From Acidobacteriota bacterium (lineage in GTDB: Bacteria; Acidobacteriota; UBA6911; RPQK01; JADFOI01), in assembly GCA_963663035.1 (NCBI GenBank), contig OY760074.1, forward strand, positions 32,001-96,000: DNA of 64,000 nucleotides, in the 5' to 3' direction. Numbering within the stretch: position 1 is the stretch's first letter; the number at the start of each line of letters is the position of its first letter. The translations under genes and the position numbers were made by a program. This document shows positions 29,416 through 64,000 of this stretch, one piece after another. Under the pieces are notes generated by a model, which was not told the origin of the DNA, ran no database searches, and saw nothing but the letters and a program-made list of their open reading frames with translations.

Positions 29416-32081
29416 TCGGTCAGACACTTTCCCATTACAAGATCATCTCCAAGCTAGGCGCTGGCGGGTTTGGGGAAGTCTACCTGGCAGAAGACAGCCG
29501 CCTGGACCGAAAAGTCGCCCTCAAAATCCTGCCCCAGCATCTCTCAGAGAGAGCCGACCTGCGGGAAAGGTTTGAGCGCGAGGCCCGGGCCGTCTCCAGC
29601 CTCAACCATCCTCACATCTGCACCCTCTATGACATCGGGGAGCAGGACGGCATCCACTACCTGGTCATGGAGCACCTGGAGGGGGAGACGCTGGCTGCTC
29701 GGCTGGAGAAGGGAGCACTACCGCTGGAACAGACCCTGCAATACGCCATCCAGATTGCCGATGCCCTGGATAAGGCCCACCGGCAGGGGGTGGTGCACAG
29801 GGACTTGAAGCCTGGCAACATCATGCTGGTCAAGAGTGGGGCCAAGCTGCTGGATTTTGGCTTGGCGAAGCAGCAGGCAACGGAGACACCCACCAACCTC
29901 TCGGCCCTGCCCACGGAGCAAGCCAGCCTCACCGCTGAGGGGACCATCCTGGGCACGTTGCAGTACATGGCCCCTGAGCAGTTGGAAGGCAAGGAGGCTG
30001 ACAGAAGAACAGACATCTTCGCCTTTGGTGCGGTGGTCTATGAGATGGCCACAGGCAAGAAGGCGTTTGAGGGCAACAGCCAGGCCAGTTTGATTGCCAA
30101 AATCCTGGAAGTGGACCCGCAACCGATGTCGGAGTTGCAGCCGCTGACACCCACGGCGCTCGACCGGGTCGTGAAGACCTGCTTGGCTAAGGACCCGGAT
30201 GACCGCTGGCAGTCGGCACGGGACCTGTATCGTGAACTGAAGTGGATCGCGGAAGGTACAACGGACGCAAGCCTGCCCACAACTGCTGCTGGAATCCCCG
30301 CAGGTTCAGGCTGGAGTCAGCTGCTCTTGCCAGTCGTGGCTTCCGTGGTAGTAGCAGCAAGCATAGCAAGCGTCGCCGTCTGGAATCTCAAGCCTGCTCC
30401 CGCCCGACCCGTTACACGTACGGTGGTGGCCCTGCAAGCCGACGAAACAATTCAGTCTAGCGCCATCGTTCCCTTGGCTTTTTCACCGGACGGTTCCCAA
30501 ATGGTCTACTCAGCGCAAAAGGGAGATGATCCACCGCGCCTCTACCTTCGTCCCATGAATAGCCTGGAAGACCAGCCTCTCTCGGGTACTGAAGGGGCTA
30601 ACCACCCATTTTTTTCGCCCGACGGACAGTGGGTTGGCTTCTTTGCGGAAGGAGAATTGAAGAAAGGTCCGATCACCGGCGGTACAGTTCTGACGATCTG
30701 CACTACGAGTGGTCGGACTCAAGGGGCAAGCTGGGGAACCGATGACAGAATTATCTTTAGTACAATCGGGGCATTGCGACTGTTGCAGGTTTCGGCAGAC
30801 GGCGGGACGCCTGAAGTCCTTACGTCGCTGGAAGGTGGCCCACTGGAATCCTTCCTTTCCTGGCCGGAGATTCTGCCGGGGGGAAAAGCGGTGCTCTTCG
30901 CGACCGGTGATGGGACGATTGTGGTGCAACGGCTCGATACGGGCGAACGCAAGGTCCTGCTGCAGGGTGGCACCTTCCCGCATTACGTTTCGACTGGGCA
31001 TCTGGTCTATTCCCGGGAAGGAACCCTGATGGCCGTTCTATTTGATCCCGATCAGCTGGAAATCTCTGGTTCTCCGGTACCCGTCATAGAAGGTATTCGT
31101 TCTCCCGTTAGAGCTTTTGGCGGCGCACAGTTGACCATCTCTAAAACGGGGGCACTGGCTTATGTTGTTGGTTCAGCGGACGAATCGGAGGGCACGCTGG
31201 TTTGGGTGGACCGCCAGGGAATATCTGAGCCCTTGGCTGCTCCCCTTCGGGATTACGAGTACCCCCGGGTCTCGCCCGACGGTCAGCGTATAGCCGTTGG
31301 AATTCGAGAGCGAGAGAATGAGGTCTATATTGGGGTTTATGACGTTTCCCGAAGCACCCTTACCCGACTGACGTTTGAGTCTGGATTTAACACCGTTCCT
31401 GCCTGGTCGCCCGATGGGAAGCGGCTGGCGTTCACCTCAGACCGAGAAGGCCGGCTGGGCATTTTCTGGCAAATGGCCGATGGCAGCGGTGGTGTGGAAC
31501 GGTTAACCACGAGCGATTATCAAACTGTCCCGGCTTCATTTTCCCCGGACGGGCAACTGCTGGCATTTATCGAAGACAATCCGACGACCGGCCGCGCAAT
31601 CCGGGTGCTGAATTTAGAAGATCGCGAGGCGGAGCCGTTCCTGCAAAACCCCTATGAAGAAACTGCACCGAAGTTTTCCCCTGACGGCGAATGGATGGCC
31701 TATTCCTCGACCGAGTCGGGACGCAGAGAAGTTTACGTGCAGCCGTATCCCGGCCCTGGCGGGAAGTGGCAGATTTCGACCGACGGAGGCCAGGAGCCGG
31801 TCTGGAACCCGCAAGGAGGTGAGTTGTTTTTCCGCATTGGGGACAGGATGATGGCGGTGGAGCTGGATACGAGGTCCGGCTTTGCGTCGGGAACGCCTCA
31901 GATGCTCTTTGAAGGACTGTACCTGCCAACCGCCTTTAGCTATCCATTTTACGATGTCAGTCCCGACGGCCAGCGTTTCCTGATGCTGCAGCCCGTCGAG
32001 TCGCAGACCGGCGGTGCGACCCAGATCAACGTCGTCCTCAACTGGTTTGAAGAACTCAAACGCCTGGTGCCTACCCCATGA
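29412..32081 (+). CDS. Ser/Thr protein kinase with TM segment and PD40 beta-propeller
   Basis: [33 protein letters not shown] repeats; ends [22 protein letters not shown] overlap with previous gene. Confidence 0.95.
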
Positions 32082-32221
32082 TCGGCCAAACCATCTCCCA
32101 CTACAAAATCATCGAGAAGATCGGCCAGGGCGGCATGGGAACCGTCTACCGTGCCGAGGACACCAACCTGAGCCGTGAAGTGGCATCAACGTTGGACACC
32201 CACTTCGAAAAACCTGGCTGA
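32078..32221 (+). pseudogene. Truncated Ser/Thr kinase N-terminus
   Basis: [36 protein letters not shown], then unrelated sequence and a stop; ATGA overlap with previous kinase. Confidence 0.9.
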
Positions 32222-32859
32222 CGATTAAACAACCGATGCAAGGAGTAGATAGTAATGTGTGAACTAATCCGAAAGCAATTGGAGGGCAAGTTCAATCATA
32301 AGTTTGATGAAGAACTTAAGAAAGCCAACTTATCTCTTGTAGATATCCATACAGTACTAAATAGGATGGGCGCGCCAGAGGCAAATGGGACTGTAGGAAC
32401 TACCGTGGGTCAAAGGTTGAGATGGCTGATTGCCCAAGAAGTCAATCGTGAGGAGGAGCGCCTTCAGCTTGGATGTAATTTTCACAAAGTCCCTCGATGG
32501 AAGTTTCTTGCAGCAATCCCTTTAATTTACATTCCGATACTGGTAGGAGCCCTACCAGTGATTGTGAGTGCTCTTTTGGTTCGAACCCATCTTACGATGG
32601 TGGGCGGCCGTGCGCTGAAGTCCTATTGGAATGATTTTGTTCCAAGCTGGGTGAGTCACCGTTACACTCGTGATACCCAAATTGTCACCGATAAGTTATT
32701 GGACAAGTACGGGGCTCTAACTTACATAACCAAATCTAAGCTGTTTTGGATTTTCAATTGTAAGCTTTACTGCCCATTGGCGGTTGCGCTCCTTGCCTAC
32801 ACGCTCTACCTGGTAAAAATTGTGGAGTAGTGGTGGTGTCCTTTCGGCCACGATAAAAA

Positions 32860-62556: not shown

Positions 62557-62831
62557 AGGTTATTCAAGCGTTGAATGCTTTGCGTTGGGTGCGCATGCTT
62601 GTGTCTTTGCGGCTATTCCCCAGAACACACACGAAACAACGGGCACCAGCAGTACAGGCCGATAGACCTGGAATTACCGACTCGGATTTCGTGACGAACA
62701 GAGTACTCCCCATCCCGCCTTGGGAGCAAGAAGAATTCTCCTGTGTGATATAGATCGCTATTTTCATTGCTTTCAGGACACCTCAAGACTTAGCATTGGA
62801 GGGCAACTGCATTGCAGTGAGGGGGAGTTTC

Positions 62832-64000
62832 GTGCTCGGCAAGACCATCAGCCATTACAAAGTCACTGAGAAAATAGGCCAAGGGGGTATGGGTGAGGTC
62901 TACCGGGCCACCGACACCAAGCTGAACCGCGACGTGGCGCTGAAGATCCTGCCGGAGCAGTTTGCCTCCGATTCCCAGAGGATGGGCCGATTCCAGCGGG
63001 AAGCAGAGGTCCTGGCCTCCCTGGATCATCCCAACATTGGGCAGATTTACGGCATCGAAGACGCAGGCCAGACCAAGGCCCTGGTGCTTCAGCTCATCGA
63101 AGGTCCCACCCTGGCGGAAAGAATTGCCCAGGGACCGATCCCGGTGGAAGAGGCCCTCAAGATCGCCCTGCAGATGGCGGAGGGTCTGGAAGCTGCCCAC
63201 GAGAAGGGTGTAATCCACAGAGACCTCAAGCCTGCCAACATCAAGATTACGCCGGAGGGCCAGGTCAAGATCCTGGACTTTGGTTTGGCGAAGGCTCTGG
63301 AAGGGGAGACTCCAGCCTCAAGCCTCTCCCAATCCCCGACGCTGACCAATGCGGCAACACAGGCGGGGGTCATCCTGGGAACGGCTGCCTATATGTCCCC
63401 GGAGCAAGCCCGAGGCGAGAACGCCGACCAGAGAGCAGATGTATGGGCTTTCGGCGTTGTGCTGTTTGAAATGCTCACTGGGCGCAGAAGCTTTGAAGGG
63501 CGCACAGTTTCGGATGTTCTAGCTGCCGTCCTTGCAAAAGAGCCGCAATGGAACAGCCTCCCGGACAACCTCCATCCGAGACTCCGACAACTCCTCGAAC
63601 GTTGTTTGGCGAAAGAGTTAAGAGACCGATACACAGGCGTTGGGGATGCACGAGTGGATATTCAGACTGTCCTGGCCGATCCGGGTGGTGTGCTTGTGCA
63701 GCCCGTTGCTGAGGTCATTCAGGCAGCATCGCGATCGAAGCTACCGTGGGTCGTGGCCGTACTCGGAATCATGATCGCTGGAGTGGCTGGCTGGGTTCTT
63801 CGAGTACCGGACCCTGGGCTAGTCAGCCGTTTTAATTTCATCCTGCCCGAGGGCCAGGGCTTTACGAGCCTCGGCGAACATGTTGTTGCGGTTTCTCCCG
63901 ATGGGTCAGCATTTTTGTACGTCGCAGATCGACAAATATACATAAGACGGATGGACTCGCTCGGATCAACTCCGATACCGGGAACAGCAGTCAATGCTAG
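62832..64000 (+). CDS. Ser/Thr kinase with TM segment and beta-propeller (runs off window end)
   Basis: GTG start; [43 protein letters not shown]; close paralog of 26692-29415. Confidence 0.92.
   Translation, partial: MLGKTISHYKVTEKIGQGGMGEVYRATDTKLNRDVALKILPEQFASDSQRMGRFQREAEVLASLDHPNIGQIYGIEDAGQTKALVLQLIEGPTLAERIAQGPIPVEEALKIALQMAEGLEAAHEKGVIHRDLKPANIKITPEGQVKILDFGLAKALEGETPASSLSQSPTLTNAATQAGVILGTAAYMSPEQARGENADQRADVWAFGVVLFEMLTGRRSFEGRTVSDVLAAVLAKEPQWNSLPDNLHPRLRQLLERCLAKELRDRYTGVGDARVDIQTVLADPGGVLVQPVAEVIQAASRSKLPWVVAVLGIMIAGVAGWVLRVPDPGLVSRFNFILPEGQGFTSLGEHVVAVSPDGSAFLYVADRQIYIRRMDSLGSTPIPGTAVNA

Follow-up and report, generated by a model that had tools for sequence, protein, structure and literature searches.

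The window analysed here is a 64,000-nucleotide stretch (positions 32001-96000 of C1, the single contig of genome G000; GenBank OY760074.1) from an Acidobacteriota bacterium whose genome measures 3.59 Mb (3,595 kb) at 54% G+C. Over 30.8 kb of this window, the ends of broken serine/threonine (Ser/Thr) kinase genes, all on one strand, alternate with unrelated small genes ('cargo'), insertion sequences (ISs) and fragments of tRNA-Leu(UAA) genes. Remnants of the 5' and 3' ends of the kinase genes are referred to below as heads and tails, respectively. An earlier reading made from the sequence alone (the sequence-only reading) had suggested that the row might be an integron-like capture system or, alternatively, a kinase array in collapse, its gene bodies giving way to cargo. 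We followed it up by comparison with a set of 31 genomes, 13 of which belong to taxonomic family f1.

Kinase gene ends, cargo and mobile DNA at the locus

The region is preceded by two intact tandem kinase genes whose stop and start codons overlap, and the first head relic overlaps the stop codon of the second gene in the same manner (Table 1). All relics share the strand of the three flanking kinase genes, two intact ones upstream and one downstream that is cut by an IS1380-like element, and a six-frame motif search of the window placed the TPR-type tail motif (DDPRFxDLLRRMNLEP followed by a stop codon) and the NWFEEL motif on the + strand only. A PD40-type pseudogene ends in its own 13-residue terminal motif at 50448. 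The relics match the termini of full-length paralogues (positions 1-60 and 761-796; tblastn and profile comparisons), and Hanks-type Ser/Thr kinases with a PD40 or TPR sensor part are their apparent source. By a hand count, ∼6 of the ∼20 orphan tails in the genome fall within 22 kb of its 3,595 kb, a clustering well beyond chance (binomial p 2e-9).

Table 1. Features of the region, in order of window position (G numbers denote comparison genomes).
Feature	Position	Strand	Basis and remarks
Two intact tandem Ser/Thr kinase genes (Pkinase + PD40 propeller)	26635-29415, 29412-32081	+	Pfam Pkinase E 2e-52, 4e-51; PD40 E 1e-23, 1e-33
Head relic, third kinase gene of array	32078-32194	+	47-amino-acid frame, stops past glycine loop
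IS256-like element	32854-34243	-	Mutator-family transposase 32891-34135; Pfam Transposase_mut E 1e-59
Orphan TPR-type tail (DDPRFHDL / LLRMNLAP-stop), split by IS1111-group element	34404-34430 + 35962-35988	+	Direct reading
IS1111-group element (IS110 family), 1,531 bp, two copies	34431-35961 (transposase gene 34761-35849); 55843-57373	-	94-96% identical to relatives
DUF427	36046-36327	+	Pfam E 2e-32
Complete orphan TPR-type tail	36339-36391	+	nhmmer E 5e-14, whole genome; profile positions 779-796 of 796
CMD-like block	36747-37592 (gene ∼36747-37475)	-	91% identical to G009
Complete orphan TPR-type tail	37644-37696	+	nhmmer E 4e-13, whole genome; profile positions 761-796
tRNA-Leu(UAA) 3' fragment and downstream D10 arm	37813-37891; arm 37943-38003	+	62 nt identical to the genome's tRNA-Leu(UAA) genes
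9-nt tail remnant and conserved downstream module	41793	+	Module 81% identical to 48809-48862
Composite junction	41793-42254	+	9-nt tail remnant, ∼130-nt post-tail module, D10 arm 41920-41985, tRNA-Leu fragment 42027-42105, leader 42113-42184, module M 42208-42254
Kinase leader	42149-42184 (whole leader stretch 42113-42184)	+	97% identical to leader of kinase gene 62832
Metal-uptake block: ZnuA-like gene, ABC-3 permease	42734-48568	+	Pfam; interrupted by IS1380-like element; 82-92% identical to G003 and G006
IS1380-like element cutting ZnuA	44784-46428		Sequence
Intergenic module (48641-48764), tail, start of post-tail module	48641-48862	+	
TPR-type tail, final 41 nt	48776-48817	+	E 4e-13
PD40-type kinase 3' pseudogene, one frameshift, ∼650 nt	49793-50448	+	tblastn query positions ∼665-895, E 4e-39
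SnoaL-like gene	50457-50825	+	Between PD40 tail and head relic; unit 88% identical to relatives
Head relic, start codon ATA	50827-50919	+	Direct reading
DUF4159 block	51286-52277	-	93-94% identical to G003, G005, G006
Amidohydrolase block, gene in two frames	52288-54605; frames 52379-53458, 53455-54531	+	Followed by right-half tail; 93-94% identical to relatives
TPR-type tail, right half only, weak	54573-54605	+	E 0.18
Head relic, ∼62 codons	60107-60292	+	Cut to ∼65 nt in G009
Lectin-like block and Vgb-lyase block	60530-62736	-	94% to G009 (lectin-like), 93% to G005 (Vgb); D10 arm 61279-61317 between
Leader and 5' part of next kinase gene (start 62832)	62750-64000	+	Cut by IS1380-like copy at the window's end

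The heads, tails and leader named in the sequence-only reading were all recovered, on the + strand and within a few bases of where it had placed them, as were two arrangements that it had singled out, namely SnoaL between a tail and a head, and DUF427 between two tails (the first of them the IS-split copy). Most of its cargo list also stood: Pfam supports DUF427, RNase D, ZnuA/ABC-3, DUF2911, DUF4159, amidohydrolase, SprT-like, Nramp and Vgb lyase, gives weak matches to CMD (E 1e-4), SnoaL (E 0.0014) and the 'lectin' (DUF1554, E 6e-4), and has no match for the genes labelled cytochrome c and NnrS. Its inventory had missed four IS copies, the two tRNA-Leu(UAA) fragments and the junction modules.

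Cargo on the - strand comprises CMD, DUF2911, DUF4159, the lectin-like gene and Vgb. The core of the window (positions 1-16000) is collinear with genomes of the same genus, at 74-80% identity, and is 68-75% identical to G009, which belongs to a different genus. Cargo matches in relatives lie in scattered places with identities well above that core (Table 1); for CMD, the 91% seen in G009 compares with 74-75% in G004 and G006. Judged by these comparisons, the DNA between the stubs is a mosaic of blocks exchanged horizontally among related lineages, together with ISs and scars of tRNA-linked islands.

Several blocks occur in relatives without kinase stubs nearby. This holds for CMD in G009 (no tail module in the ∼1.1 to 1.9 kb of flanks examined) and for the G005 copy of DUF4159, and likewise for the metal operon, which in G003 and G006 sits between orthologues of G000 1774250 and 1774241. 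Since these two are adjacent in G000, the site that the operon occupies in G003 and G006 is empty in G000. In G011, an intact TPR-domain gene carrying the tail motif (at least 474 amino acids, its 5' end lying off the stretch) ends 75 bp before DUF427, and the first tail beside DUF427 is therefore a leftover of this old neighbour; the second tail begins 12 nt past the DUF427 stop codon. The order PD40 tail, SnoaL, head recurs in G006, and SnoaL followed by the head in G013, the head relic after SnoaL being common to G000, G006 and G013. Between G000 and G006 the head is 87% identical, the tail 91%, non-coding DNA 90-92% and SnoaL third codon positions 88%, a comparison that gives no sign of constraint on the relics and permits no dating.

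At the metal-uptake block, the left boundary falls exactly at a promoter-like stretch (42734-42790, TTGACAA...TTGATAATTGAATCGTA) that is common to G003 and G006 and looks like a metal-regulator operator, and the block terminates at the permease stop codon. Behind the SnoaL-associated head lies a 370-nt non-coding stretch (50920-51289), rich in G+C and in hairpins, that has no Rfam match; it is 90-93% identical in G005 and G006, and the G005 copy continues straight into a tail. Directly adjoining the second IS1111-group copy is a SprT-like/DUF2786/DUF7168 protein (57397-58572), a combination familiar from plasmids and integrative elements, for which the five genomes searched held no close relative (best 67%). 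NCBIfam and Pfam searches of the unnamed cargo open reading frames (ORFs) found no recombinase.

The two 62-nt tRNA-Leu 3' copies lie in the window as direct repeats, and ARAGORN found no complete tRNA in the window. This 3' part is present at seven G000 loci (57-79 nt, 100% identity), four of which are called as tRNA-Leu(UAA) genes. At G000 1248845-1260880, two same-strand tRNA-Leu(UAA) copies enclose an interval of ∼12 kb in which lie an IS1380 copy, module M and a tyrosine integrase (1256233-1256742). The interval is probably the autonomous relative of the window's integrase-less tRNA-Leu scars. Module M (∼45 nt, core GGTAAGGGCGTTATCCGTCCAAGTGG) occurs at six places, 42208-42254 of the window and G000 900062, 1255124-1255168 (-), 1261912-1261945 (-), 2882552-2882594 and 2884256-2884283. 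At three of the six it directly follows the post-tail module; the other three then carry GCGAAAGGGTGG and different DNA. Module M may mark where a small RNA starts, act as a promoter-operator or form the end of an element; no Rfam family was found for it or for the other modules (window 30000-64000 and two other loci, E up to 0.1).

The four IS copies, of three families, occupy 6.1 of the 30.8 kb (20%). The genome as a whole is rich in young ISs: blastn retrieved 29 full-length IS1380-like copies among 39 matches (98.4-100% identity), 21 full-length IS256-like copies among 29 matches, and four copies of the IS110-family element, one of them itself interrupted.

Orphan kinase ends across the genome and the family

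A profile built from three tails detects ∼30 tails in G000, of which 9 or 10 end frames of 500-837 amino acids; the rest are orphans, on either strand. When the 1.5 kb upstream of 20 orphan sites was searched with a profile built from seven intact TPR kinases, the relic started at positions 761-785 of 796 in 13 cases, one site gave a start at 728, one a hit from a neighbouring intact gene, and five gave no match. These 13 orphan TPR tails keep only their last 11-35 codons. Among the 13 is a minigene (G000 2137273-2137497) that combines head positions 10-42 with tail positions 767-795. Heads are as common as tails in this genome and end mostly after 22-62 codons, longer truncations also being present. 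Elsewhere in G000, PD40-type gene arrays that end in a TPR-type gene are found at 376-381 kb and 1274-1283 kb.

The sequence-only reading had proposed a motif search of this genome and its relatives as a check, and the search returned orphan tails throughout both the genome and family f1. A 30-residue tail query gave 142 matches in the 31 genomes, 136 of them in the 13 f1 genomes, where 89 of the 136 lie in open frames shorter than 150 amino acids, 39 in frames of at least 400 and 8 in between (short frames at contig ends being possibly contig-cut). Short frames stand to long ones as 20:1 in G003, 13:2 in G006 and 8:2 in G005. The six matches outside f1, one of them from the unpublished genome G017, which supports no other statement made here, lie in frames of 582-772 amino acids (three), 395 amino acids (one), and 98 and 134 amino acids (two). 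Loss of the kinase family is under way throughout the taxonomic family: gene bodies have been deleted or replaced, and only the last 11-35 or first 20-60 codons are left behind.

Relics also accompany other cargo in the relatives. On one strand of G003 contig C108, a leader and a 69-amino-acid head relic are followed by an entire amidase gene, after which comes a tail relic (71-amino-acid frame). Contig C151 of the same genome has an amidohydrolase gene, a 526-amino-acid ORF and a 205-amino-acid ORF, and a tail on the same strand lies where each of them ends or slightly beyond (the 205-amino-acid ORF overlaps its tail, and neither ORF has a Pfam match), and G001 contig C409 has three same-strand tails ∼1.1 kb apart, with an opposite-strand 241-amino-acid ORF and an RRM-domain gene between them. 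No cargo unit was seen twice between different termini.

An IS1111-group element and its predicted target

The 1,531-bp element encodes a protein with DEDD (PF01548, E 4.5e-17) and Transposase_20 (PF02371, E 7.6e-19) domains that scores 224 bits against NCBIfam transpos_IS110 (cut-off 140). Subterminal inverted repeats of 11 bp (ATGAGAAGGCC / GGCCTTCTCAT) are set in from its ends by a few bases, the gene is preceded by 112 nt and followed by 330 nt, and the same CT stands at both junctions. A stem-loop predicted in the long end carries ACGACCUGCUG on one side, which has 11-nt identity to the left flank plus core (chance expectation ∼0.004, a rough estimate made by hand), and on its other side CCGCAG, complementary to the right flank CTGCGG. 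For IS1111-group bridge RNAs, one description lists subterminal inverted repeats of 7-17 bp, a longer post-gene end and a flank-matching loop of 8-14 nt (PMC11208160). By its domains, inverted repeats, guide loop and site-specific insertion, we assign the element to the IS1111 group, with a predicted guide RNA.

Seven of the eight copies sit at a single tail position (GACCTG^CT^GC, carets marking junctions): three of the four in G000 and, as judged from left junctions, all those recovered from G005 (three) and G004 (one). The insertion site reads ...GACGACCCTCGCTTCCA(C/A)GACCTG, element, CTGC(T/G)GCGGATGAA..., and the DNA upstream of the tails that were hit differs by locus. The eighth copy (the second in Table 1) occupies a look-alike site, GCTTCCCTCAACCTG ^ CTGCTGCGGAGG, in which two of the ten left-flank bases differ. 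The TPR-type tail thus appears, on these junctions, to be the programmed target of an IS of the IS1111-group, bridge-RNA type. Upstream of each of the seven tail-inserted copies the frame stays open for just 14-90 codons. With short frames as common as they are, seven out of seven would arise by chance about 8 times in 100, and the restriction to orphan tails fits selection against hits in live genes, without proving it.

Two further roles for the element were considered and rejected. An IS-cargo-IS composite between the two window copies is a poorer fit to their flanks than two independent insertions. The idea that IS-cognate tails are the ones that become orphans found no support: in a comparison of 49 orphan tails with 38 intact ones, mismatch counts over the 10-nt guide showed no significant difference (Mann-Whitney p 0.09), with at most one mismatch in 14/38 intact versus 22/49 orphan tails (p 0.51) and perfect sites in 0/38 versus 5/49 (p 0.065).

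In its domains, subterminal repeats, CT junctions and long post-gene end with a flank-matching loop, as well as in its insertion at one fixed position of a dispersed repeat, the element resembles the IS1111 group of the IS110 family. Within that group, IS4321 and IS5075 reportedly target Tn21-type inverted repeats, and the IS1111-attC elements are further examples. ISPpu9 is reported to target REP sequences (10.1101/2025.01.17.633520). Unlike such targets, the repeat found here is not an extragenic palindrome, attC or transposon end; it is the last 50 nt of a protein-coding gene family, and its insertions, unlike other IS1111-group cases, are all in orphan copies. A literature search, which covered few subscription journals and is therefore weak evidence, found no description of this pattern or of IS1111 targets in gene ends; to that extent, the tail as an IS target and the family-wide excess of orphan termini appear to be new. 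The element would be a natural case of an RNA-guided IS programmed against the coding end of a gene family, which bears on the choice of safe, multi-copy targets.

A second IS family may likewise favour kinase gene ends: one IS1380-like copy lies at G000 381455, a few bases past a tail's ...CCCTAG stop, and another at window 63997, inside a kinase gene. Many tails end in CTAG.

Probable decay of a kinase array and competing explanations

The explanation that we favour, at a probability of roughly 0.55, is that a decaying, co-oriented Ser/Thr kinase array, with tRNA-Leu island scars beside it, came to serve as a landing pad for genes that are exchanged horizontally, one type of stub acting as a safe, multi-copy target of an RNA-guided IS. 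The array would once have consisted of co-oriented, paralogous PD40-propeller and TPR kinases interleaved with tRNA-Leu(UAA) attachment sites, and the relics would have inherited their common strand from it. Dead kinase genes may have served as neutral landing pads, and repeated deletions between useful neighbours would have trimmed them to border stubs; because such deletions must fit between useful neighbours, repeated hits leave small border pieces. The stubs, as the only parts of the family conserved at the DNA level and with dozens of copies, probably also act as homology patches for recombination. Signs of decay include the IS-cut ZnuA, the split amidohydrolase gene, the frameshifted 650-nt PD40 pseudogene and the head at 60107, which is shorter in G009. 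The second of the two options in the sequence-only reading, a collapsing array with cargo in place of gene bodies, fits the flanking same-strand kinase genes, the G011 TPR gene, the minigenes and the recurring head-cargo-tail units.

For the most part this is ordinary genome decay together with mobile DNA of known kinds, arranged in an unusually orderly way. Erosion of pseudogenes accompanied by IS expansion is known from host-associated or recently restricted bacteria such as Mycobacterium leprae, Shigella and Sodalis, with which the present genome shares near-identical ISs, split or truncated genes and the loss of a large paralogous signalling family; unlike in those cases, dead genes are here replaced in place by exchanged genes, and termini outnumber intact genes. 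What the locus may record is how a large family of signalling genes comes to be dismantled in a lineage associated with a host or with sediment, its loci being reused for imported genes.

Several observations weigh against erosion of the array as the sole process. By a hand count, 17 of 19 TPR-type 3' fragments in G000 are shorter than ∼100 nt, as against ∼4% expected from one random cut and about one third under a 1/length decay model (p 6e-7). Bounded deletion can absorb part of this excess, and only pieces that contain a terminus are recognisable; for passive decay to account for it, most relics would have to be old and to have suffered several hits each. Among the seven intact TPR paralogues, tails agree at 83-94%, compared with 36-59% in the TPR/C-terminal part. 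The residue after DPRF is His in 10/49 orphans versus 1/38 intact tails (p 0.02) and Thr in 8/49 versus 17/38 (p 0.005), p-values that overstate the difference because related genomes are not independent. Half tails that break at or near the IS crossover occur at window 54573 and at G000 1195516, 3583067 and 294624.

Two patterns of arrangement point the same way. A locus at 2.88 Mb in G000 repeats the module order of window 37.8-48.9 kb (tRNA fragment, arm, cargo, tail, post-tail module, module M, cargo, intergenic module) with unrelated cargo, namely an MscS channel and ORFs without a Pfam match, a beta-lactamase-fold gene lying just beyond. DUF4159 is missing in G005 where the preceding stretch meets the tail directly, lies in G006 between a 22-nt left half-tail (a direct repeat) and a full tail, and is flanked in G003 by two tails with post-tail modules. 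The excess of short relics, the residue bias, the shared module order and the toggling of DUF4159 hint at a process tied to the termini rather than at erosion alone.

The integron-like capture system envisaged in the sequence-only reading found no support in the form stated. The locus resembles an integron in that a row of small unrelated genes is split by a recurring short sequence that is also an IS1111-type target. Unlike in an integron, there is no intI, attI or attC-like imperfect palindrome, cargo lies on both strands, and joint boundaries vary. Pfam found no Phage_integrase match among the 45 window ORFs, and none of the eight PF00589 matches in G000 lies in the window or beside a tail. 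Three tails folded as DNA gave -6.5 to -8.8 kcal/mol (z-scores -2.07, 0.32 and -0.19) with no long hairpin, and a repeat search found no inverted repeat in the tails. Several window joints have no tail, and some cargo lacks tails in relatives. A fixed crossover does not hold generally and was rejected: five orphans share a start at T^GCGACGACCC, yet 40 orphans from relatives mostly reach the DPL codons, begin at varied points and are preceded by unrelated DNA. Orphan left ends range from ∼9 to ∼105 nt before the stop codon and, since they vary in this way, there is no fixed crossover. The region is not an integron-like site-specific cassette system. The termini may nonetheless be used in recombination, as cargo has been exchanged horizontally, DUF4159 toggles at a tail, and the tail is a predicted bridge-RNA IS target.

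Active cassette exchange at kinase termini, which we consider unlikely, would treat heads and tails, with the leader and post-tail modules, as cis-acting joints at which cargo is swapped into kinase loci. The swap would rely either on homologous recombination between the conserved termini once DNA has been taken up or on the IS1111-group recombinase, working in trans on tail sequences. At the DNA level the termini stand out as islands of identity (75-83% across the first 300 nt of the kinase genes, and the tail values given above) present in dozens of copies, and the cargo is horizontally exchanged; but the varied left ends leave no fixed crossover, and relatives carry the metal operon, DUF4159 and CMD at places where no tail is near. 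DUF4159 toggling with its half-tail repeat, the 2.88 Mb module order and the head-cargo-tail units with other cargo in relatives speak for exchange at such joints, whereas the adjacency of a tail and DUF427 is accounted for by the intact upstream gene in G011, and no cargo unit recurs between different termini. As for the recombinase, several half tails break near the IS crossover point, and the IS110-family element ISPpu9 is reported to form several kinds of circle carrying separate modules (10.1101/2025.01.17.633520); against its involvement, guide mismatch counts do not differ between orphan and intact tails (p 0.09 and 0.51), and the window's two IS copies are explained by independent insertions, one in a true tail and one at a near-cognate site.

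In its boldest form, which seems to us quite unlikely, kinase termini would have been co-opted as portable joints, and cargo with a head and a tail, or with a tail only, would enter any of dozens of kinase loci, each event killing a kinase gene. Stubs that are active joints would constitute a new route of gene-cassette exchange, a cassette system resting on gene termini and an RNA-guided recombinase rather than on attC and the integron integrase. A parallel is offered by the orphan modules downstream of the rhs and cdiA toxin genes, short conserved gene fragments that precede variable DNA and recombine with the full-length gene. The stubs are likewise short conserved fragments beside variable DNA but, unlike those modules, each fragment here is an extreme gene end with its stop codon, and the cargo is unfused and unrelated to kinase function.

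Tandem accretion of integrase-dependent islands is very unlikely. The tails would then be duplicated gene ends, carried by islands that integrate at the 3' ends of TPR kinase genes just as tRNA-Leu 3' halves are by islands at tRNA genes, with an integrase that acts in trans or has been lost. The region does contain tRNA-Leu(UAA) 3' halves with shared arms, two tails lie 117-230 nt upstream of such fragments, and a tyrosine integrase is present between two tRNA-Leu(UAA) copies at 1.249-1.261 Mb; none of the PF00589 matches, however, lies beside a tail. Five orphans begin at the same base (the T^GCGACGACCC group), but most reach further upstream, with varied boundaries. Cassettes here go down to 350 bp without arm-like repeats, unlike known islands, and heads are as common as tails, although such elements would not duplicate heads. 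The likeness to the accretion of integrase-less (cis-mobilisable) elements at tRNA genes lies in the tRNA-Leu 3' halves as direct repeats, their shared arms, the single orientation and the small recombinase-free cargo units; unlike in that system, most joints here are kinase gene ends, both heads and tails, without fixed boundaries.

That the mosaic order arose from mis-joining at repeats in a metagenome-derived assembly is scarcely credible: the region is repeat-dense and short-read contigs break at its modules, but the single G000 contig resolves 29 full-length IS1380-like copies, independently assembled relatives show the same kinds of joint, and exact contigs from independent studies bridge several cargo-relic joints. 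The latter come from a comparison of positions 32001-52000 with Logan contigs of four short-read runs, in which exact contigs from three studies span head to IS256 (32155-32888), tail to CMD (36364-37017), CMD to the next tail (36988-37662) and arm to the next ORF (37977-39499). The joints bridged in this way are not assembly errors; the remaining ones are ambiguous because of repeats. Many module joints in the run contigs (for example 36378>41810, 37998>42149 and 42184>50443) were rejected as rearrangements of G000: their short sides and 90% likeness are what paralogous loci or related organisms would be expected to give, and they were therefore not counted. Contigs of all four runs contain the IS-free joint 44783/46427, that is, ZnuA without the IS1380-like element.

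Near the two ends of the G000 contig, at 3503-3542 and 3572720-3572759, lie two orphan tails that are identical, down to a shared internal deletion, and have their flanks in common, which suggests that a large segment is duplicated or that the contig ends overlap.

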